48,139 nucleotides of DNA from an uncultured Nitrososphaerales archaeon (lineage in GTDB: Archaea > Thermoproteota > Nitrososphaeria > Nitrososphaerales > Nitrososphaeraceae), in NCBI GenBank assembly GCA_963709405.1, contig CAVPXM010000058.1, forward strand, positions 1 through 48,139. The letters are read 5' to 3'. This document shows, one piece after another, positions 9,312 to 47,928 of the stretch. The notes under the pieces are model-generated. The model was not told where the DNA came from and made no database searches. It was given only the letters and a program-made list of their open reading frames with translations. Positions within the stretch are counted from its first letter, which is position 1. Every line of letters begins with the position of its first letter. A program made the position numbers and the translations under genes.

Positions 9312-9520
9312 GCCTATCTTTTGTATAATGAGGAGAGGCCATCATTAGTCACTTTAATCTAACATTTTCAAAAAGTCCTCACTCGGAGTAGATAGGTCAT
9401 TAGAAGAAAGGAAACTAATAATTACTGGAACATTCGTCGAATGCACTATAATGCTTTTTTATTAGTGAAACATGTGACACTCATGGTATTAGTGAGTAAC
9501 AACTATCTCAAATATACAAT
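9312..9520 (+). repeat. Duplicated promoter block plus first codons of the DsrE gene
   Basis: Matches 31386-31452 joined to 31741-31881; ATG at 9483 followed by truncation. Confidence 0.85.
9426..9448 (+). promoter_or_regulatory. 23-bp palindromic operator
   Basis: tggaacattcgtcgaatgcacta; T-rich box from 9454, ATG at 9483. Confidence 0.85.
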
Positions 9521-9615: not shown

Positions 9616-10846
9616 CTAGTTGTGTGTTGGGTTTAATATTTCTTTAAGGTGTTCATCAGAAGTAGAATTAGCATTTGTCGCATCTACAACAAACCCTGCA
9701 CCCTGTAAAAATCTACCTATATCATGGTCGTTACCAACATAGAATCCTTGTTCAGGAAATACTACCTCTACAGATTCTGCAGAGCCAGGAGGTATTGAAA
9801 TTTCATATATTTTTGACCCTGACTGACTTTCGAAATGTGACCTTGTACGAGTATCAATTGGTTGTTTGTTGTCGGTATAATTATTACTGCTACGACCAAC
9901 TGAACTAATCATAGCAGAAGCAAAATTGAGTGAAAGAGAACCTCTTGGACCAGCATTGATGATATACCATCTTGTAAGTTCTCCTGGCTTGACTTTGAAT
10001 ATGTCTGCATCATTATTAAGTACAATTTTAGACAGAGAGCCAAAAAATGGCATGTACTTATAGGCCATACCGTTGGTTAATATTAAGTCAGGTTTATTTT
10101 CGATAAATTTGTTCATATCAAATGAGCCTATTTTGTCTTGATTTTCTTGTGCTGGCGTTGTCCTTTGTATTGTTCCTGAAGCATTAGTTTTGGTTGGTGC
10201 TGTGGTAGTAGAATTTGCAGTAGATAGAGCACCTTGAAATAATCCTCCATCTGCAGTATTATATATCTCTCCGAATACCATATAGAATTCTTTTGCAGGT
10301 TTCTCATATTTGGGATGGACTATCATGCCTCCATACATTCCACTGGCGATATGGTCCCAGATACCATTTAGATTATCCCCATCACAATGATACATAAAGA
10401 CACCAGGATTTTCTGCTTTAACTTGCCATGTTTTGCTTTCACCAGGGCGTACAGATAGCTAAAGCTTGACTTGGTCCTTCTATTCCATGCAGATCTAGAC
10501 TATGAACTAGCTCTCCTTTGTTTACTAGAGTAATCTGAAATGTCTCCCCTTGATTAACTACGATTATTGGGCCCGGTATAGTTCCATTAAAGGTCATTGC
10601 TCTATATAATATTCCTCCAGGATGTAATGCATTATCGGGCGAGATCTTTACTATATTTTCATCAGCAATTAAGATGAATTTCTTGATAGTATTGTTATTG
10701 TTAGGTTGTGATAGCAGTGTAGTCTGTAAAGATATTGATTTTTGATCATGTGATTGCCATCCTGAAAGGTGATTATTAATAGGCATAAATAATAGTATTA
10801 TCTGGAATATAATCAGAACAGTTATTCCTAAAATCAACTGATTCAT
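9616..10846 (-). CDS. nirK: NirK-like two-domain multicopper oxidase, frameshift near 10445
   Basis: HSLDLHG, YHCDGDNLNGIWDHIASGM (type 1/2 Cu ligands) and GNDHD; ORFs 10439-10846 and 9616-10395 join; paralog at 22367. Confidence 0.8.
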
Positions 10847-20747: not shown

Positions 20748-20781
20748 TATTACTTAAATTAGGTGATTGACATTATCGAAT

Positions 20782-21199
20782 ATGCAATCAAGTAGGCTTC
20801 CTATAAGCAATATTGCAGACAGTAAGCCCAAGTTACTTGGATTAATATCAGTTCTTGTTATAGGGATTTTGGCTGTACCCTGTAATTTTGCCTCATGTAA
20901 GTCATGTTGACATGATATATCATATTCTACTACACTTAGCGAGCCTAATTATTTCGATTTTCCTTGGTACTGTGTCCCTCATTGCTTACAACAGAAATCG
21001 GTGTGGTAGGCTATTATTTATGGCAATGGGATTTCTATCACTAATAGTAATTGAATGCTTATACTTGGTATTTGCAACAACAAATATCGAGGATATAATA
21101 ATACCAGTAGTAAGGATTGAATTGCCGCATGTGATACTTTTTGCAATGTTAACCTTATTTGGTATTGGGATCTTCAGAGTGAGTAACAAGAATTTATGA
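20782..21199 (+). CDS. His-rich small integral membrane protein (about 4 TM), frameshift near 20880
   Basis: MQSSRLP...LLGLISVLVIGILAVP then LPHVSHVDMIYHILLHLAS...IELPHVI; stop overlaps the next ATG. Confidence 0.75.
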
Positions 21200-21780
21200 A
21201 TTCAGATTCAAGAGCATTAGAGGAAACTCCTATAATAAATCATCCTACTCACATCATTCAGATTTCACAAGAATCTAAACGAATTATTAGTGTATCACTT
21301 TTAAATCACATTAACAGAAATCCTGGCATAAGATATAGGGAACTCCTTAGATTGTCCGGCATCGGCAACGGCGTCTTAACATACCATCTTTTGATACTGG
21401 AGAGGAAGGGTAAAATAAGAGTACATAGAATTAGAAATAAGATGACAAGATATTATCTTACACAAATTCCAGATAAAGATACAAAGATTATAAGCTCTCT
21501 AAAAAATAAGATGACAAGACAACTTGTACTCTTCATTTTGACTCACGACATGTGTTCATTTAGGAAAATAGTTGAATGCAATGGAAAGGCACCATCTACT
21601 ATATCATGGTATCTTAACAGATTAAGAGACGTAGGAATTGTATCTATAGAAACTGGGGAACGCTGTCAACTTTATACTTTAGCCGATAGTAAAGAGATCA
21701 AGAAGATATTATGTAGATATAAAGAAGTATTCTTGGATAAATGTGTGCATAACTACATTGAAATGATGGATCAGCTATAA
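21196..21780 (+). CDS. Archaeal double winged-helix transcription regulator
   Basis: INRNPGIRYRELLRLSGIGNGVLTYHL and a second HTH KAPSTISWYLNRLRDVGIV. Confidence 0.88.
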   Translation: MNSDSRALEETPIINHPTHIIQISQESKRIISVSLLNHINRNPGIRYRELLRLSGIGNGVLTYHLLILERKGKIRVHRIRNKMTRYYLTQIPDKDTKIISSLKNKMTRQLVLFILTHDMCSFRKIVECNGKAPSTISWYLNRLRDVGIVSIETGERCQLYTLADSKEIKKILCRYKEVFLDKCVHNYIEMMDQL

Positions 21781-21970
21781 TCTTCTTCCAAAGTTTCATT
21801 GGTTACTTGAATTACGTATGATTACTTAATTTGTTTACGCAGTCACATTGTCATCGGCGGCACATAGTTACATTTTTTCAATCATAATGCCTCATAAATA
21901 GAACCAATCTATAGCAGAATCGATTAAATGCTATGATCGGCCACCATTGATATCATCAAATAATTAACTT

Positions 21971-21993
21971 TGGTACATTCGTCGATTAAACCA
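21971..21993 (+). promoter_or_regulatory. 23-bp palindromic operator with no downstream ORF
   Basis: tggtacattcgtcgattaaacca, 5 bp, ATAATA (21999). Confidence 0.85.
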
Positions 21994-22027
21994 TAATTAT
22001 AATATATTTACGATGGAATAGCTGGAT

Positions 22028-22153
22028 CAGGATCCGCGAGCAAAGGATACATTCACATCATAAGTCTTGATTACTACTTGGTGGAGGTAGCCTAGACAAA
22101 AGTGAGAGCGGTTTGAGTGAATTTTACACCGATTTGATTCCTTTGCTCGTTTT
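22028..22153 (+). ncRNA. Candidate structured small RNA
   Basis: 12-bp closing stem 22036-22047/22139-22150 enclosing further stems, T-run after it, start at the expected distance from the operator/TATA. Confidence 0.5.
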
Positions 22154-22366
22154 AAGTTTGATCTATACCAGTTAGCATAAGTAAGCTAACACATTCTAGG
22201 TCAGATAATTACGCATATTCAGATTGCCGTTACCGTACTTATGTTTATTGGTATAGTTCGTATATTGAACAGTAATATCCTCGGCTCCAATAGATACCTA
22301 ATTTGGCATCATTTTCTTCTCTTCTCAATCCTGTTCGTTGAGTTTTAGGAATGATAAGTTATCTAT

Positions 22367-23587
22367 CTATCTCGGAATCCAAGTTCCTTTAGGATGATCA
22401 TAAGAAGTGGAACTATCGACCGCTAGCACAACAAAACCTGCGCCTTGTAAGAATCTGCCTATATCGTGGTCGTTACCTACATATGATCCTTGTTCTGGGA
22501 ATATAGCTTCTATTTCCTCTGCTGAACCTGGAGGTATTGAGATTTCATATACTTTTGATATTGACGATAATGGATGAGTATTAGTAATAATTGAGTCGAT
22601 TGTTAAGTTGTTATTAGTATAGTTATTAGTATTGGTATTATAATGTATGGTTTTAATCATTCCAGAAGCAAAGTTAAAGGAGAGATAACCTCTAGGACCA
22701 GCATTGACTATATACCATCTTGTCAGTTCACCTGGCTTGACCTTGAACACTTCTGCATTTTTATTAAGAATTATTTTGCTTACAGTGCCAAAAAATGGCA
22801 TGTACTTATATGCCATACCATTGGTTAATATCAAATCAGGTTTATTTGCAAGAAATTTATTAATATCAAACGAACCTATTACTCTTTTTGCAGATGCACC
22901 AGTAAATGACATATTTGAATTATCGTTATTGTTACTATCTACTGTATTTGAAGCATCTGTGAATAATCCACTATCAGCTGTATTGTATATTTCTCCGAAT
23001 ACTACGTAGAATTCTTTTGCTGCTGGTCTCTCATTTTTAGGATGGACTACAATTCCACCATACATTCCACTAGCAATATGATCCCAGATACCATTTAGAT
23101 TATCTCCGTCACAATGGTACATAAAAACGCCAGGGTATTTTGCTATAGCTTTCAGTGTACTATTTTCACCGGGTTTTACGGAAGAAACCAAAGCATGAGT
23201 TGGGCCTTCTATTCCATGTAAATCTAAACTGTGAACAAGTTCTCCTTTATTATATAACGTTATCTGAAACATATCTCCTTGATTGACTACAATTGCTGGA
23301 CCTGGTATAGTGTCGTTATATGTCATTGCTTTGTATAAAATGCCACCTGGATGTAGTGTATTGTCAGGAGAGATCTCTACTATATTTTTATCGTCTGCAA
23401 TTAAAGTAAATTTCTTTATACTTTCGTGATTGTTGCGCGTATTCAGTTGTGAAGGTCTCATTGTTGATGATGGTAAAGGATAGGTTTTTTGGTCATATGA
23501 TGAAAAGGCTGAAATGTGACTGGTATTATTTAGTATTAGTAATACTACTCCTTGAAAAATAATCAGTAGAGTTATTATTATTCCCAT
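22367..23587 (-). CDS. nirK: NirK-like two-domain multicopper oxidase
   Basis: HSLDLHG, YHCDGDNLNGIWDHIASGM, GNDHD; the ORF-track extension to 23659 is partly the antisense of an RTX remnant. Confidence 0.82.
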   Translation of the reverse strand: MGIIITLLIIFQGVVLLILNNTSHISAFSSYDQKTYPLPSSTMRPSQLNTRNNHESIKKFTLIADDKNIVEISPDNTLHPGGILYKAMTYNDTIPGPAIVVNQGDMFQITLYNKGELVHSLDLHGIEGPTHALVSSVKPGENSTLKAIAKYPGVFMYHCDGDNLNGIWDHIASGMYGGIVVHPKNERPAAKEFYVVFGEIYNTADSGLFTDASNTVDSNNNDNSNMSFTGASAKRVIGSFDINKFLANKPDLILTNGMAYKYMPFFGTVSKIILNKNAEVFKVKPGELTRWYIVNAGPRGYLSFNFASGMIKTIHYNTNTNNYTNNNLTIDSIITNTHPLSSISKVYEISIPPGSAEEIEAIFPEQGSYVGNDHDIGRFLQGAGFVVLAVDSSTSYDHPKGTWIPR

Positions 23588-23611
23588 ACCTGGCTCAACC
23601 AATATGCCATA

Positions 23612-23836
23612 CCTGGCAATGATATCATATATAGAGGTAATGGTGATGATTATATGCAAGATGGGCCTGGAAACGATAAGATCTATGCAGAAAATGCTGA
23701 TGATAAGTTGGTTGTTGGTCCAGGTGCAGATTTATTCGATTGTGGACCAGGAAATGATGTAGTTAAAGACTTTAATGCAACTGAAGGAGATGTTCATCTA
23801 GCCAACTGTGAAATGATTGAAGATGACAATGATTAA
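23612..23836 (+). pseudogene. 3' remnant of the RTX calcium-binding gene (paralog of 5595-6124)
   Basis: PGNDIIYRGNGDDYMQDGPGNDKIY...ANCEMIEDDND matches 5900-6124. Confidence 0.85.
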
Positions 23837-24170: not shown

Positions 24171-24729
24171 CTAGTAATCAAGAACTACCGGGCGTTGGTC
24201 GATTATTTTTTGCATTTTAGGCATCTCTGGATGTGTGTCAATCTCTATGCCAGGAAGAAGATTCTCGATAGTCAATCCAGCCATCTTCACGCAGTGGTCA
24301 CATGCAATTACCCTGCCTCCTTCATTCAGGAACAGTTGAAGCGTTTTACTTACTGGTTCTAATGGTCCGGTTACATTTTTCGTTGCAATCTTAACCCCGT
24401 TTACGTCAAGGAGGATCGATACATCTTTGCCGTCTCGTAACATAGTTAATGAATGATCCACTCCCATCATTGCCGAATGGACTTCATAAGTGCTATTGCT
24501 CTCTCCAGGTACTTATATGTACTAATACAGGAGTACCTTTTCCAAGTAAATGCATTTTTGATACTGGAGCTGTTGTTGCATTCATGTCCATATTCATGCC
24601 CATCGAACTAGGAGTAGAGGTCTGTGCAAGTACGGAATTTTGGGCTAGCATATTAATTGTGATAGCACCTGTAACTAGACTAGCAATTGCGAGTGCAGTT
24701 ATTATATATTTTAGATGATTGTTTCTCAC
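24171..24729 (-). pseudogene. Inverted copy of the secreted DsrE-family gene, frameshifted, with TATA and ATG deleted
   Basis: 24110-24600 is close to the reverse complement of 31985-32472; frameshift near 24505. Confidence 0.82.
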
Positions 24730-27118: not shown

Positions 27119-27652
27119 TATTTAGCTCGAGGTTTAATGTACTTCAAATCAATAAAATATTAGAACACACTAAGCTGCAGATCTTTCTAACTTAACATAG
27201 CCATGTTCCTTAGTACAATACTGGCATTTGTAAGTAAATCTAACAATATCTTGTTATCATCTAGTGGCTTTATGCTTTTTGGAAATTGTATATAATTTAT
27301 CATATTGATTAACATTGTTAAATATGGGCACTCTTACTTAGCTATAATGCATTGATAAAAGATAGATATTATTAATTGAGTACCGGCATATATTATACTT
27401 ATGTAATAGTCTGGGCCTCTCCTGTCCTCGTAAAACAACATAAATTGTGAAAGAATTAGACATCGTATAAACTGAACATTCACGAGGATTTATTTGATTA
27501 AAAGATAAGTCTATATAATATTGCTCTGGTGTTTTGATAATAACAGCCAGCCAATATCTGAGCCAAATAAGTTCCTGTTCTCAAGGATATAGTCACTATA
27601 ATTCGGACTCATAGTAGCATAACTAAATTATATGACACGCTTTTTACTAAAT

Positions 27653-27675
27653 TGGAGCATTCGTGAAATGTACTA
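27653..27675 (+). promoter_or_regulatory. 23-bp palindromic operator
   Basis: tggagcattcgtgaaatgtacta, 5 bp, TTTATT (27681), in-frame GTG at 27710. Confidence 0.78.
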
Positions 27676-27709
27676 CAATATTTATTACCTTCATGATGAC
27701 AAAAAAATT

Positions 27710-28774
27710 GTGTGCATTATCAATAAATGTATGATGGCTATTGAAAGAGCCTCGCTATATTCGACAGTAAGTATTTTATCTACATTATTTGTCATTACTG
27801 TCGTTATGACAGCAGTGCTTCCGGCTTATGGTCATACATTCTCACAAAATGAGAATTCTTTATTTCTGACTAAAATGGATCAAATGCATTCTCAGTTACA
27901 ACTAGTTCAGAATCTTCTTTCCACCAATGCAACTTCTGGCGGTAATAATACGAACAATACCAAATTCGCTCTAATTCATGCGATCGAGGCAGCAGCATTG
28001 TTAAAGCAAAAGGATCCTGTAAACAATTTTACATGGAATCAGGAGATTGCGGAAAGAAATCAAAGGGTTGCAAATGATCTTGTAAGAGGATTAAACGATC
28101 TCACTACCTTCATAGATCAGAATGCATCACCAAAAGGTAATTCCAAGGTTGCTTTAGCCAATGAAAGCTCATCTATTCAAGATAAAATAAATAATTTAGG
28201 TGGCCTCTTAGATGAGGCCATATCTGCTAGAGTCGCGAAAGATATCGTGAATAATTCAACAAATCAGGCTCTGGTGCTGGCTAATATCGGAAACGAGATA
28301 TTTTATAGCTATGGTCAGGCTCTTGGATTTCCATATCCAAAGTTGGCTAATATGGTTGCAACCATGAATATGTCTGCGATGAGTGGTAATAATATGAATA
28401 TGCAAGGAAAGAATATGATGCAGGAAAATATGAATAATATGAATATGAATAATATGAATATGAATAGCAACAAGATGCCAGCCATGGGTAATAATGTGAA
28501 TATTCTAAATGAATCACAATATCAGAATGCGCAGGCGTATGTCAAACAAGCCCAAGAAATGGTCTCAAAGTATCTAAAGTCTCCAGCCTCTACTAATAAA
28601 AATATGACCTCTGATGTGCAATCACATCTGAATAAAATCCTTTCGCAGCTAAAAACAACTATTGATAATAAGGGACCATTCAATACTGTAATGACTCTTG
28701 TACATATGCAACTACATCCAACACTAATATCTGGTCATGGGCTGAAATTAGTAGCCCCTCCTCCCACTACTTAA
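27710..28774 (+). CDS. Secreted His1/Met-loop helical protein
   Basis: AYG-HTFSQNE, (MN)-rich loop, VHMQLHP; close paralog of 41053; start revised from 27632 by promoter spacing. Confidence 0.85.
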   Translation: MCIINKCMMAIERASLYSTVSILSTLFVITVVMTAVLPAYGHTFSQNENSLFLTKMDQMHSQLQLVQNLLSTNATSGGNNTNNTKFALIHAIEAAALLKQKDPVNNFTWNQEIAERNQRVANDLVRGLNDLTTFIDQNASPKGNSKVALANESSSIQDKINNLGGLLDEAISARVAKDIVNNSTNQALVLANIGNEIFYSYGQALGFPYPKLANMVATMNMSAMSGNNMNMQGKNMMQENMNNMNMNNMNMNSNKMPAMGNNVNILNESQYQNAQAYVKQAQEMVSKYLKSPASTNKNMTSDVQSHLNKILSQLKTTIDNKGPFNTVMTLVHMQLHPTLISGHGLKLVAPPPTT

Positions 28775-31843: not shown

Positions 31844-32410
31844 ATGGCATTAGTGAGTAACAACTATCTCAAATATACAATAACTATACTAGCAATTGTT
31901 GGTGTAGTTACAGGAGCTGTCACAATTAATGATCCCGCCCAAAAATTAGTACTTGCACAGAGTTCTAATCCTGCTTCGATGGCCATGAATATGGACATGA
32001 ATGCAACAACAGCTCCAGTATCAAAAATGCATTTACTTGGAAAAGGTACTCCTGTATTAGTACATATAAGTACTGGAGAGAGCAATAGCACTTATGAAGT
32101 CCATTCGGCAATGATGGGAGTGGATCATTCATTAGCTATGTTACGAGACGGCAAAGATGTATCGATCCTCCTTGACGTAAACGGGGTTAAGATTGCAACG
32201 AAAAATGTAACCGGACCATTAGAACCAGTAAGTAAAACGCTTCAACTGTTCCTGAATGAAGGAGGCAGGGTAATTGCATGTGACCACTGCGTGAAGATGG
32301 CTGGATTGACTATCGAGAATCTTCTTCCTGGCATAGAGATTGACACACATCCAGAGATGCCTAAAATGCAAAAAATAATCGACCAACGCCCGGTAGTTCT
32401 TGATTACTAA
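31844..32410 (+). CDS. Secreted DsrE/DsrF-like protein with CxxC and Met-rich N-terminus
   Basis: Signal peptide, SMAMNMDM, VSILLDVNGV, GGRVIACDHC. Confidence 0.85.
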   Translation: MALVSNNYLKYTITILAIVGVVTGAVTINDPAQKLVLAQSSNPASMAMNMDMNATTAPVSKMHLLGKGTPVLVHISTGESNSTYEVHSAMMGVDHSLAMLRDGKDVSILLDVNGVKIATKNVTGPLEPVSKTLQLFLNEGGRVIACDHCVKMAGLTIENLLPGIEIDTHPEMPKMQKIIDQRPVVLDY

Positions 32411-35353: not shown

Positions 35354-35539
35354 AATATCTCCACGCATGTCTGCAATATCTCCACTTATTGCGATTAAAT
35401 CAAGGTAATTAATAGTGGAGGTATTTGTAGTAAGGTCGAGATATCTTAAAGCGTTGCATGAAATATCTCTACCACTTTTAGACTTACTTTGAGCACGAAT
35501 TCGGCTTTGGTGGAGGTAGTGGAGATAGTGAAGGTATTT
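35354..35539. repeat. Cluster of AATATCTCCAC-like direct and inverted repeats
   Basis: Copies at 35354, 35375, 35462 (+) and 35415, 35435, 35510, 35519, 35528 (-). Confidence 0.6.
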
Positions 35540-36962: not shown

Positions 36963-37550
36963 TTAACCGCCTGGAACTCCTGGTTGGATCTCGTTTACAC
37001 CTACTACTGCAGTGCTACTTGGTGGAAATGTTATGGGCTGGTCAGAGGGATTTTGTAATGCTACATCTGTCTGGTAAACTTTCTTTGCAGGATCTGAATC
37101 AATATCTACGTGATACAAGCACATATTTCCAGGCTGTGATAATTCCTTTATAATATCTGGTTCTACAACTTTGAACGCGGGAGCGGGTCCAATAAGTACG
37201 TTTACATTGGCCTTAGAATTCAAGTCACATGGAACATGTAGAGCTACGTGTCCGGCATTTATCATGTATGGTGTAGAATCGTAAATATGTAAGAATCCCT
37301 TCCCTGGTATGGTCTGGCCTTGTAGAAGAAGTGTAATAGTGTCTCTAGTAACTGTACTTTGATTGCCTGTGGGACTAGCTGATGACATATTCATGCTTGA
37401 CATTCCTCCACTAGTTCCCTGATCTTGTGATGGATTCAGTGGATTAGTCTGACCTAGGACTTTCGTAATTCCTGTTGTCATAATAGCTAATGACAGTGCA
37501 ATTGCAACCAACATTCCAAATGCAATTCCGTTATTTCTATTACTTTTCAT
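36963..37550 (-). CDS. Secreted HxYDxTPY-family His/Cys protein with Met patch
   Basis: Signal peptide, GMSSMNMS, HIYDSTPY...GHVALHVPC...CLYHVD. Confidence 0.82.
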   Translation of the reverse strand: MKSNRNNGIAFGMLVAIALSLAIMTTGITKVLGQTNPLNPSQDQGTSGGMSSMNMSSASPTGNQSTVTRDTITLLLQGQTIPGKGFLHIYDSTPYMINAGHVALHVPCDLNSKANVNVLIGPAPAFKVVEPDIIKELSQPGNMCLYHVDIDSDPAKKVYQTDVALQNPSDQPITFPPSSTAVVGVNEIQPGVPGG

Positions 37551-41052: not shown

Positions 41053-42078
41053 CTAACCAATCTTGTAATTAGATATCAATGTGGGATGTAGCTGCAAATG
41101 GATAAGATTCATCACAGTACTGAACGAACCTTTGCTATCAATAGTCATTTTTAGCTGTGAGAGAATCTTGTTTAGTTGTGATTCTATGTCTGAAGTTGCA
41201 TTTTTGGTTGCGGACCCTGGTGACTTGAGATATTTGGGAATAATTTCTTGAGCTTGTTTGACATACGCCTGAGCGTTCTGATACTCTGACTCATTTAGTA
41301 TACTCACCTTATTGTCCATGGCTAGCCTATTCTTGTTGCTACCGGCATTCATATTATTCATATTATTCATATTTTTTGCTTGCATATTCATATTAGAACT
41401 CATTGCTGACATATTCATTGTTGCGACCATATTAGTCAACTTAGCCTGTGGAAATCCAAGGGCCTTACCATAGCTATAAAATATTTCGTTTCCCATATTA
41501 CCCAGCACTAGCGCCTGATTTGTAGAATTGTTTACAGCATCTTTTATCACTCTTGCAGATACAGCCTCATCAAGTAGGCCACCCAAATTAACTATATTGT
41601 CTTGAATAAGTGAGTTATTATCAGCAAGTGAAGATTTATTATTAGGTGGTGTAGATACTTTCTGGTTTAGAGAAACCTTTAAGTCATTTAGTCCTCTGGT
41701 AAGATCCCTTGCTATTCGTTGATTTCTTTCTGCAATTTCTTGGTTCCATGTGAAATTGCTTCCAGGATCTTTCTGATTTAGTAATGCTATTGCCTCCATC
41801 GCATGAGTTTGAGCGAATTTGGTATTATTCATATTATTATTGCTAGCACTGGTATTGGTTGAAAGAAGATTCTGAACCAATTGTAACTGAGAATGCATTT
41901 GATCTACTCTAGTAAGGAACAACGAATTTTCATTTTGTGAAAATGTATGCCCAAATGTAGAAGGTAATGTCGATATCGCGGTACTTGTGAATACAAATAT
42001 AGTGAATAAACTAATTAAGAACCGAAATGATTTTTCAGTCCTCATCGTAGACACAATCCATTTATTGACACTATTCAT
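41053..42078 (-). CDS. Secreted His1/Met-loop helical protein
   Basis: TFG-HTFSQNE, MNMSAMSSNMNM loop, IHLQLHP; paralog of 27710. Confidence 0.88.
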   Translation of the reverse strand: MNSVNKWIVSTMRTEKSFRFLISLFTIFVFTSTAISTLPSTFGHTFSQNENSLFLTRVDQMHSQLQLVQNLLSTNTSASNNNMNNTKFAQTHAMEAIALLNQKDPGSNFTWNQEIAERNQRIARDLTRGLNDLKVSLNQKVSTPPNNKSSLADNNSLIQDNIVNLGGLLDEAVSARVIKDAVNNSTNQALVLGNMGNEIFYSYGKALGFPQAKLTNMVATMNMSAMSSNMNMQAKNMNNMNNMNAGSNKNRLAMDNKVSILNESEYQNAQAYVKQAQEIIPKYLKSPGSATKNATSDIESQLNKILSQLKMTIDSKGSFSTVMNLIHLQLHPTLISNYKIG

Positions 42079-44836: not shown

Positions 44837-47172
44837 TTGGGTCTTGCGAAATACGGAATTGATTTAGATAGTTTTAGTGGTTGTATTGCAGACGAGTTAA
44901 ACAATAACAATAATCTAAAACTGTTAGATAAAGATGGAAATAGACTAACTGTAAAACAATTCACAACAGAATATGAGAAAGATACTTCTTTAATTCTGTA
45001 TTTTAGAAAGGCCAAATTTAACACTTTTTACAATAAAAATTCTGGATACATAATATATCTTGGAGAAGATTGGCAAGAAGGATATAGGAAATTATGGAAT
45101 CAAGACATATTCCTCAAATTCCGTAAATTTGATGAGCAGTATAATCAACGTCAAGAAAGATCACAGGAAAGTCCAAAACCAAATAATAATAATAATTCAC
45201 AAGAAAAGTCTGAAGTAATAGAACAAAAGATTCGTGAATTAGAACAGAAAATTAAACCATTTGCAAACTTTGTGGCATGGGATCTGGAATGGATGCCAGA
45301 ACCTGATGAAACAGGCATTAAAAGAATAACAATGGCCTCATTTGTTGACAGTAATGGAAAAAAGAAGGTCTTCCATATCCTAGACCAACCATTTGCAAAT
45401 AGTGCAAATCCTGCAGAGGCCTTGATAACTGCTATTCTTGACGAACTGAGTAACTATGACATTTCCATAGGACATAATATTTGTGGTATATCGGATGGAA
45501 AAGGACGTGGGGTTGATTCAGATCTGATAACACTGCAAAGTAATTGTTATGCAAATAACATAGATTCATTCAAAGTTTGAATTGAGCCGCACTCATATTA
45601 ACCGAAACACTATGACCATATCAATGCCTATTATTAGAATAAATGGAAAATCACATGAATGTATCGACACTCTCAAAATATTTGACAACCAGGCAATAAA
45701 AACAGCTTTGGCAGGTGAAGGAATAGAGTATAGAACTAACAAACTTGACGAAATATCAAAAGCGGTTTTGGGCGAATCTGAAGGTGGTAAGTTAGAAGAT
45801 CTAGATGGAATAGAGATCCAGAAATTGCCAATAGAAAAACAAAAGGAATACTGTTTGAGGGATTCTGAACTTGTTATGAAATTAATTCAGTATAAGGACG
45901 GGAATCAGAAAATAATGAAAATGCTGAAGTACTATTTCAGCAGTGACTGGATTAAGTCTAATTCAAACATGTCATGGCACACCAATGTCTTGGTGGAAGA
46001 AAATATTAGAAAATACTGGTCGATTATTACCTTCACAAATTGAAAAACTACCCTATACTGGTGGCAAAGTCTTTGAACCTATTCCAGGACTTTATGAAAA
46101 CCTCTTGAATATTGACGTAGCCAGTCTGTATCCGACTATGGCCATTACTTATAACATTAGTCCAGAGACTATAAACTGTGATTGTTGTAGAAACGATCCA
46201 GAAGCAAGAGTAAAGCAAGAGGTATTACAAGTGATAAATCAGGATCTGCTAAGAGAACAGAAAATAGAAAAACCAAGGGACTACGGGATCTGCAGACATA
46301 CAAAAGGTATATTTTCAGAATTACAAGAGGAATTTAGAGATATCAGATTATACTATAAAAAGATAGATAAACCAAAGGCAGATGCGTTGAAAATTTTGAT
46401 GAATTCAGGTTACGGAGTATTTGGTAATGAATACTTTAAATATAGAGATTATAGAGTAGCAGATCTTATTGCAGGTTATGGACGATACACATTAGACAAA
46501 ATGAAGGAAATAGCCGAATCATTTGGTTTTAAAATAATTTATGGTGATACAGATTCACTATTCTTGCAAGGAGATGATGAAAGCAAACTTGAATTATTCA
46601 TTAAGGCATGTCGTGACGCACTGAAAGTTGATGTAGAACTTGACAAAAAATTCAAAAGAATTCTATTCAATGGAAATAGAAAAGAATATTGTGGAATAAC
46701 TACAGAAGGAAAATTTAGCAATCCAGACAATCCTCTGATTAAAGGTGCTTATGCAATAAAGGATAATGTCCCTAGATTGTTTGAAAATAAATATAGACAG
46801 TTTATCAAAGAATTGTTGGCCCATGGTATTTCAAATATTGAAAACATAGTAGGTGATATAATATTAAAAACAATACAAGATCTTGGAAATAAGAAAGTAG
46901 ATAATTACGATGATCTATTGTATATTACGCAGTTATCAAAAAACCCCGAAGATTACAAAGATGAAAATGCCTCAAAAACTATAGGAATGCAGCAAAACAA
47001 AAGAAAAGGCGAATTAATAAAATATTTCAAGAGAAATGATGGTAAGCCAACGATAAATCCGGATGAAATTGGCTGGGAAAAATATAAGTTGGAATATTTA
47101 AACCTCTTTAGAAGAGACCTACAAGCAATAGGATATGATATGTCTACCTTAAGGGTTGCCTGTGGTAGATGA
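44837..47172 (+). CDS. polB: Family B DNA polymerase of mobile-element type, split by two frameshifts
   Basis: Exo motifs WDLEW, GHNI...DL, YCLRD; polymerase motifs DVASLYP, KILMNSGYG, YGDTDS. Confidence 0.9.
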
Positions 47173-47928
47173 CTTGTCAGAATTTGTCATATGGATGTCA
47201 GTGATTTGATATTTCAGATGATAGGAATTAGCGGTGGCTTAATGTTCCTCGCAGGATTATCTTGATTTGTGTTTAAATAACATTGCTTCCTGGTATGAGC
47301 TGATTGAAGGATGAATATCAAGAAAAGTCTATCAGAAATTGATTTGCAGAGACTGGTTGAGAGCAGCCTGGTTCTGAAGGCGCAAGTTAATCATAGAAAA
47401 TTATTTCAAAAAGGATTGTTCAATTTTCGATGAAGATAATCCGTTGCACAATCTAGGGCAGGTTATACAAAGTAATTCTCAGTATCATTAATATGTTATA
47501 AGATAATATTAAAAAAAGTTATTAATTATATTCTAGCCAAACGTATCTAGGCGATATGTTACTTATAATTGGTTTCTTCCTCCAATTGGACTAGTTAAAC
47601 TGATGAATAATATTAGTGATGATCTTACCGAAACGATAAGGCGTGCAGACGTATCTACATTCTACAGGTACAAGTGTAGAAAACATGTACGTCTGAATAT
47701 TTGTCACCGTTTGGTCTTAAATCTGTTACTAGATGATTAGGTGTATTGTAATGTGATTATATCCTTTGTCCGTGGATCCTATTAGTTATCCCTTTGTAAA
47801 TATTATATTACAATTATGGTATAATCGAACGATGCACTTTATGGTAGGACTCTAACATACAAGAGATATTTTGAAATGTAAGAATACTGTAGGACTATCG
47901 TTGCAACGCAGAAAAATTAATGAATATT

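Follow-up and report, generated by a model that had tools for sequence, protein, structure and literature searches.

A candidate gene for a structured small RNA behind a regulon operator in a copper-gene island of a Nitrososphaeraceae archaeon

What does an operator control when no protein-coding gene stands behind it? The question is raised by positions 21971–22153 of a 48,139-nucleotide (nt) stretch of archaeal DNA (hereafter the window), which is contig C58 (CAVPXM010000058.1) of a 4.83-Mb, 37% G+C assembly from an uncultured member of the Nitrososphaeraceae, a soil ammonia-oxidising archaeon. An initial annotation, made from the sequence of the window, had read the segment behind this operator as a regulon-controlled small RNA (sRNA). 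Our analysis supports that proposal in part: the segment specifies a structured RNA with a conserved, operator-bearing promoter and a covarying family, and the locus is, with high confidence, a real gene for a structured RNA. Sequence comparison also makes it probable that the gene has its own operator-controlled promoter with a predictable start. We favour, more cautiously, the reading of the locus as a stand-alone gene whose product belongs to the regulon, acts in trans and is a paralogue of an RNA found across the family. That paralogy was missed by the initial annotation, as was a second, longer copy without operator in the same genome.

Fold and family of the RNA

The RNA would extend from 22029/30 to about 22153 on the plus strand, a length of about 120–125 nt. 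The helices and terminal T-run listed in the initial annotation all lie where it had placed them, and every listed helix is present in the minimum-free-energy (MFE) fold. In the modelled architecture, a 12-bp helix, P1, opens into a three-way junction from which two arms emerge, the first consisting of P2, an A-rich internal loop and P3, and the second of P4. The 5′ arm of P1, gcgagcaaagga (22036–22047), pairs with tcctttgctcgt (22139–22150) through 11 Watson-Crick pairs and one G-U pair, and is followed by the junction strand J1/2 (UACA, 22048–22051). The 5′ arm of P2 (22052–22058) pairs with 22102–22108 in the register of the family; the ttcac/gtgag helix lies at 22052–56/22102–06. C22050 and G22108 are paired in the MFE fold, and the matching family columns hold CG in 32, GC in 7, UG in 2 and CA in 6 of 56 members. 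The internal loop (CAUAA, 22059–22063, facing AAAA, 22098–22101) separates P2 from the P3 hairpin (22064–22097), which has a gtct/agac base (22064–67/22094–97) and a distal ctactt/aggtag helix (22074–79/22085–90). The loop and 3′ strand of P3 carry the G-rich segment UGGUGG(A)GG. P4 (22109–22131) is a cggt/accg helix (22109–12/22128–31) closed by a 15-nt loop, and the single-stranded, U-rich J4/1 (AUUUGAU, 22132–22138) leads back to the 3′ arm of P1, which with the T-run TTTT at 22150–22153 forms the presumed 3′ end (22139–22153).

Homologues were sought in 41 related genomes. Full-length matches (~190 nt, 80–82% identity) were found six times in genome G006 and once in G002, and matches in two separate patches were found in every other genome of the genus. 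Together with the window copy, the full-length matches form a set of eight syntenic loci in three genomes, here called the short forms; the G-rich segment of P3 reads TGGTGG in seven of them and TGGCGG in the eighth. The two-patch matches are longer paralogues of 158–176 nt that have no operator, one of which, 176 nt long, lies in the same genome as the window copy (C26:16478-16653; L019:1479-1654). Long and short forms share P1, P2, the bases of P3 and P4 and all junction bases, and the long forms add an extension of ~50 nt to P4. The C26 paralogue sits within a 3.2-kb stretch that holds just one open reading frame (ORF) of at least 80 aa. In 5/7 long-form loci of the genus, ~110 nt upstream of the RNA are conserved; in 7/7 the conservation covers ~105 nt on its downstream side, where a small hairpin, CAGTTAGTTAGCAACTG, is found. 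The real long-form transcript may extend beyond the modelled core.

A covariance model, R1, was built from a 16-sequence seed drawn from one genus and including the window copy. It gave full-length matches in 26 of 121 Nitrososphaeraceae genomes, spread over 8 of 18 genera and reaching nine in one complete genome; 127 genomes from 19 other families of the order had no match. Since R1 derives from a single genus, low sensitivity may lie behind the lack of matches in other genera. (The 121 genomes include the unpublished G092, with locus L039, on which no claim rests.) As a seed member the window copy matches by construction, at 115.3 bits over model positions 1–123. Altogether 56 members of 108–237 nt were gathered, and the 40 that lie outside the seed constitute independent support. 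A scan of metagenomes with the pattern AGGATCCNCGNGCNAAGGAT returned 88 stretches, of which 80 were checked against the model; none was confirmed, so these are chance matches.

Covariation across the family is strong. Paired cells make up 91.8% of the total in the 56 members, compared with 75.6% in column shuffles and 32–54% with slid partners; 18 of the 21 pairs show changes on both sides, which amount to 174 cells; covariation scores 0.475, and slid partners never exceed 0.122; and 0/500 shuffles reach any of the five measures, figures that must be read in the knowledge that the alignments were fitted to the model structure and that related sequences inflate shuffle tests. Changes on both sides are spread over the helices (8/11 counted pairs in P1, 7/7 in P2, 4/4 in P4), and the five outer P1 pairs, which lie outside the model and were counted on 34 members, show them in four cases. 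G-U pairs are frequent (GU in 19/34 at one P1 pair, UG in 32/56 at one P2 pair), which fits the plus strand as the RNA strand. The initial annotation had proposed homologue collection and covariation as a check on its candidate, and both came out in its favour.

The unpaired core is conserved as well. Among 34 members for which unpaired bases were counted, the U and the last A of J1/2 are present in 34/34, as is each of the four positions of AUAA in the 5′ side of the internal loop; on the 3′ side the first A is found in 32/34 and the other three in 34/34. The UUGA of J4/1 is conserved at 27–33/34 (U 30, U 32, G 27, A 33). All of these family invariants are present in the window copy, at 22048–51, 22060–63, 22098–22101 and 22133–37. 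Unpaired core nucleotides that never vary point to a scaffold that binds a protein or a ligand.

The family corresponds to no RNA class that we could identify. None of the 4227 models of Rfam 15 matched anywhere in the window at gathering score, and at E ≤ 10 none matched either 21960–22200 or a long paralogue; the Rfam search proposed in the initial annotation thus leaves the candidate outside every Rfam family. No tRNA was found in a tRNA scan. The genome has its genes for 5S rRNA, signal recognition particle (SRP) RNA and RNase P RNA on other contigs (C30, C63 and C55, respectively), and the models of these RNAs do not match at the locus. The 5S rRNA, whose gene is at C30:214064-214183, resembles the present RNA in its length of ~120 nt, its end-closing helix, its three-way junction and an arm with an internal loop; it differs in that the present RNA shows no Rfam match at E ≤ 10 and belongs to a family with up to nine copies per genome and lengths of 108–237 nt. 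K-turn, hammerhead, H/ACA, C/D and purine-riboswitch-like cores were compared by eye, and their defining bases are missing. Among the genomes searched the RNA is confined to Nitrososphaeraceae, and with no Rfam match it appears, from its sequence, to define a new family.

Promoter and short-form loci

The operator variant TGGTACATTCGTCGATTAAACCA occupies 21971–21993; its left half is perfect, and its right half is degenerate, departing from the consensus TGGTACATTCGNCGAATGTACCA at three positions. Within the window the 15-nt core, ACATTCGNCGAATGT, is found 12 times when up to three mismatches are allowed (1.95 expected; 12 reached by 0/100 shuffles), and the sites lie directly ahead of A/T-rich boxes and gene starts. 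The strong operator of the initial annotation is therefore borne out, as a variant site. At up to two mismatches, 36 sites were counted in the whole genome, seven of them on C58.

Adjoining the operator is an A/T-rich region, ATAATTATAATATATTT (21993–22009), whose conserved part, ATAATATATT, lies at 21999–22008. The initial annotation had noted an ATAATA box here. The box is present; the host is an archaeon, with archaeal SRP RNA and archaeal RNase P RNA genes, and the box is hence a TATA box and not a −10 element. Archaeal TATA boxes are centred near −26, which would put the start of transcription, ~25 nt downstream, at 22029–22031, close to the position (~22028) predicted earlier. There the 5′ leader AGGATCC begins (22029–22035), invariant in 10/10 aligned promoters, which comprise the eight short-form loci and two truncated copies; the distance from ATAATATATT to AGGATCC is 22–25 nt across the alignment. 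All these loci have a common layout, comprising the left operator half TGGTACATTCGTCGA, an ACC end, the TATA box ATAATATATT, a spacer, AGGATCC and P1. The arrangement of operator, TATA box and AGGATCC is retained in 8/8 short-form loci, and the variant operator layout is also seen in the two truncated copies. The operator adjoins the TATA box where the transcription factor B recognition element (BRE) is placed, so that a bound protein could block or recruit the basal factors. A scan for sigma-70 promoters and intrinsic terminators, a method unsuited to an archaeon, gave one promoter-like site (3.9 expected) and no terminators.

A regulator homologue of 193–194 aa lies upstream on the same strand in all seven other short-form loci, so that the position after the regulator gene, described in the initial annotation, holds in all eight. 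The convergence on nirK that it also described is not conserved, as other convergent genes follow the RNA elsewhere. None of the eight loci has a conserved same-strand ORF downstream. Compared with the seven other loci, the window promoter is 77–82% identical and the RNA body 81–85%, whereas the 150-nt flanks are 59–64% identical in 7/7 comparisons, which is the background level (unrelated 150-mers: mean 59%, maximum 61%). The gene and its promoter thus form an island of conservation, within which 271/280 cells (96.8%) are paired across the eight copies.

Regulator and copper island

Along the plus strand the locus reads as a split membrane gene, the regulator gene, a 190-nt spacer, the RNA candidate (21971–22153) and two repeat segments. 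The regulator (21196–21780, plus strand) has 194 aa and two winged-helix domains, with Pfam matches to HTH_24 (residues 34–75), HVO_0163_N and HTH_5/ArsR (107–150), and is a candidate for binding the operator; NCBIfam gave just weak matches, to MsvR and ArsR/SmtB HTH models. Homologues occur in 56/61 Nitrososphaeraceae genomes and 17/18 genera (the 61 include the unpublished G054, with locus L077, on which no claim rests), and a scan of a genome collection with the regulator returned four loci, all in G006. H64 is conserved in 29/29 homologues, C120 in 28/29 and H117 in 22/29, with mostly His or Tyr at position 128; H64, C120 and H117 may form a metal- or redox-sensing site.

The operator seems to have a longer history than the RNA at this site. 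Sites with one to three mismatches occur in genomes of three other genera, in two of them at 0.9 kb (G052) and 3.8 kb (G014) from a regulator homologue; on three contigs of G002 the distance is 0.2–7.5 kb. A reversed control pattern gave no matches. The operator is older than its link with the RNA. Besides G002:C142, the RNA is found next to the regulator in six G006 loci and in the window. Such rarity indicates that the RNA gene came to lie beside the regulator within this genus.

The wider window is an island of copper genes, with a CopC/D fusion, several multicopper-oxidase genes or fragments, a small metal-binding protein, ZnuA, a CHRD protein, many unknown exported proteins and several transposase genes. 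In Nitrososphaera viennensis, genes induced by copper limitation (CopC/D, MCO4, an ArsR-type regulator and unknown exported proteins) share the motif TTCSGSMTTTGWACYANT (PMC7785015). Comparison by eye with the operator half TTCGNCGAATGTACCA gives agreement at 12 of 16 positions, a lead rather than a proof of kinship. The two are alike in their ends, TTCS... and ...TGWACYA, which match TTCGNCGAATGTACCA, and in standing upstream of CopC/D, multicopper-oxidase and exported-protein genes; they differ in the central bases, and the text of that study describes a motif, not a palindrome, and reports no RNA gene behind it (PMC7785015). We lean towards the view that the RNA is co-regulated with a copper-linked regulon.

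Upstream of the regulator lies a gene for a small membrane protein (20767–21199, plus strand), which is in two frames here (20767–20910 and 20888–21199) and forms a single 138-aa ORF in the related loci L002, L012 and L003; the split could be due to a frameshift, a sequencing error or an assembly error. Another cassette of this kind, with membrane gene, regulator and RNA, lies at C6:5650-9290 (L020) and is decayed. Its RNA keeps the operator, the TATA box and the first ~35 nt and then passes into unrelated DNA with a gene for a family-B DNA polymerase, a junction that looks like the insertion of a polB-carrying mobile element into the RNA gene. A near-identical junction of this type was observed at the right end of the window (47761–47851, minus strand; 45943–47172, plus strand).

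Downstream, two repeats derived from miniature inverted-repeat transposable elements (MITEs) lie between the RNA gene and nirK. The first, MITE-like and ~95 nt long (22163–22258), begins just after the RNA gene, outside the RNA, and has internal inverted ends; copies of 92–95 nt with 95–96% identity occur on C21, C50 and C82, with weaker 64-nt matches on six more contigs. The second (22272–22343) is an internal 72-nt fragment of a dispersed repeat of ~170 nt with nine other copies at 76–85% identity, full copies of which terminate as TTGTAGGAG... and ...TTCCTACAA. These insertions account for the difference from other genomes in the sequence 3′ of the T-run. Beyond them, convergent with the RNA gene, lies a NirK-like two-domain multicopper oxidase (22367–23659, minus strand) with Pfam domains Cu-oxidase_3 and Cu-oxidase_2; its best NCBIfam model is Cu_nitrite_red, at 105.8 bits, under the cut-off of 296.

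Several further duplications were observed in the window. A second NirK-like oxidase paralogue (9616–10846, minus strand), 76–83% identical in DNA to 22428–23392, is broken into ORFs of 259 and 135 aa, and beside it, at 9430, an operator site stands with the truncated start of a DsrE-like gene. A 337-nt inverted repeat with 100% identity (24172–24508 and 32073–32409) forms the DsrE-like part of two operator-controlled genes, one of which (24171–24729) is broken into ORFs of 78 and 99 aa and the other of which is a single 202-aa ORF; the identity suggests recent duplication or gene conversion. Two paralogous unknown proteins, encoded in inverted orientation at 27632–28774 and 41053–42078 (76% identical DNA), have long Asn/Met-rich runs from ATGAAT (Asn-Met) repeats, and an operator site lies before one of them, at 27657.

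Competing explanations and meaning

In the mechanism that we favour, transcription would begin downstream of the TATA box under the control of the two-winged-helix regulator, encoded 190 nt upstream and the likely operator-binding protein. The operator is a variant of the palindrome that stands ahead of the exported and metal-related genes of the CopC/D-multicopper-oxidase island, and the RNA would be made or silenced together with the regulon, probably in response to copper supply. The RNA may then act in trans, its conserved core recruiting a partner common to the family and its specific role coming from the parts peculiar to the subfamily, namely the G-rich UGGUGG loop of P3, the short P4 and the AGGAUCC leader. 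In its anatomy, as read from the sequence, the RNA looks most like a scaffold that uses an invariant core to bind a common partner and owes its specialisation to the P3 and P4 hairpins.

Several observations weigh against this reading, in addition to the limits of R1 and of the covariation alignments given above. As a single sequence the fold is weak: the z-score calculation suggested in the initial annotation finds the fold present, but at an MFE of −33.7 kcal/mol its z-score of −1.62 does not exceed chance (15/200 shuffles are as good), and the opposite (minus) strand folds with a lower z-score of −2.55. With single-sequence folding unconvincing, the case rests on the comparative evidence. 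In its family register the P2 of this copy has an A-A mismatch (22055/22105), avoided here by the 2-nt register shift to ttcac/gtgag. The T-tract is short, P1 being followed by TTTT in two of the eight short forms, this copy included, and by TTTC in the other six; in five of the eight, at least four consecutive T stand no more than 10 nt from where the covariance-model match ends. The short forms themselves show no covariation beyond that of shuffles (96.8% of cells paired versus 96.2%, reached by 75/500 shuffles), and only one pair has changed on both sides, so the argument for selection on the subfamily structure rests on the conservation island and on covariation at the level of the family. 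All six G006 copies belong to a single fragmented assembly (650 contigs, 6% contamination) and may in part be strain variants. Of the 28 regulator loci that were tested in other genomes (28 of 30 were taken, leaving out the window's own and L077), only G002:C142 has the RNA beside the regulator; the link between regulator and RNA is recent and limited to part of one genus. The C6 cassette has a frameshifted membrane gene, a TGA stop in the regulator and an RNA cut after ~35 nt. Lastly, 12-mers complementary to the RNA are not enriched, with 118 exact-word matches compared with 61–150 in ten shuffles.

The absence of enrichment bears on one of the alternatives, a strict copper-sparing role in which, under copper limitation, the RNA would pair with mRNAs for copper proteins that the cell can spare (NirK-like oxidases and plastocyanins, for example) and shut them down. 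RyhB and PrrF are bacterial metal-regulon sRNAs whose own promoters carry a metal-homeostasis operator, and the present locus would be like them as a small non-coding RNA gene that belongs to a metal regulon through an operator in its predicted promoter. An operator-bearing promoter within a copper island, a G-rich P3 segment conserved in 7/8 copies, a 12-nt complement inside the operator-controlled ORF at 36963–37550 and a 13-nt complement at 35507–35519 would all suit such a role. However, the 13-mer, which is the best match, falls in non-coding DNA, the convergence with nirK is not conserved, and the RNA is for the most part a conserved scaffold with a fold, not a free seed. The locus also differs from RyhB and PrrF in lacking any sequence or structural relation to them (no Rfam match) and in its archaeal TATA promoter. 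We regard strict copper sparing as unlikely.

Two other possibilities, each doubtful to the same degree, start from the coexistence of long and short forms. The short RNA, without the P4 extension, could be a decoy or a stand-in that competes for, or replaces, the long RNA at their common partner when the regulon is on. Both forms are present in one genome, they have the same core nucleotides and differ in P3 and P4, and the invariant unpaired nucleotides suggest a shared binding site; against this, the idea is purely an inference from anatomy. GlmY and GlmZ are a homologous pair of bacterial sRNAs, and they resemble the present pair as two paralogous structured sRNAs in one genome with a common core, one of which might act as a mimic; the analogy is one of layout. 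Alternatively, the invariant core might be a pocket for a protein or a small ligand, with copper stress bringing in the short paralogue over the long; an Sm-like protein on the U-rich J4/1 would, we presume, be an example of such a binder. To our knowledge, and in the literature searched, metal-dependent switching between RNA paralogues has not been described in any domain of life.

A less favourable view would see in the locus a functionless, decaying duplicate of the family RNA which happened to land behind an operator. The missing covariation within the subfamily, the P2 mismatch of this copy, the frameshifted membrane gene next door and the plain decay of the C6 cassette all speak for it. 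It is nevertheless improbable, as promoter and body are 77–85% identical with flanks at background in 7/7 comparisons, 96.8% of the cells of the eight copies remain paired, and operator, TATA box and spacing have been kept.

A cis-acting leader or riboswitch of a downstream gene since lost is very improbable. The conserved junction with its invariant unpaired bases does resemble an aptamer, and MITEs have been inserted downstream of the RNA, but a same-strand ORF follows in 0/8 loci and the next genes are convergent. Members of the family in other genera likewise have unrelated neighbours, several of them convergent, and no downstream gene recurs (53 of 78 listed ORFs were compared, overlapping shorter frames having been dropped by eye).

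The weakest readings, the end of a MITE or insertion sequence (IS) and a small protein gene, can be all but dismissed: the 12-bp terminal inverted repeat, the adjoining real MITEs and a 20-aa TTG frame invite them, but there are one full copy and one diverged paralogue in 4.8 Mb, the synteny is fixed, the stems covary with compensatory changes, phage and plasmid collections hold no match to the element, and that frame (22113–22175), the only plus-strand ORF of at least 20 aa inside the RNA, has TTT for its start codon in 7/7 homologues and is broken by indels of 1–2 nt. The initial annotation, which had named a MITE or IS end as what would overturn it and had seen no ORF behind the operator, stands on both counts, apart from this one unconserved frame.

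Among archaea, Methanosarcina sRNA154 and the stress sRNAs of Haloferax are regulated, stand-alone sRNA genes. The present locus would be similar as a stand-alone archaeal sRNA gene under a specific transcription regulator; they differ from it as lineage-specific single genes without a covarying family that spans several genera. In the literature searched, which included few subscription journals, we found no description of this RNA, of archaeal sRNAs linked to copper or to ammonia oxidisers, or of post-transcriptional control in ammonia-oxidising archaea.

Ammonia-oxidising archaea carry out the first step of nitrification with copper enzymes. A trio of regulator, operator and RNA in a copper-acquisition island would offer a handle on the control of copper genes in soil ammonia oxidisers. 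The RNA family, with strong covariation and in none of the catalogues searched, could be submitted to Rfam and probed for its structure as it stands. The two paralogues, one regulated and one without an operator, form a natural pair whose comparison can reveal what the conserved core binds.

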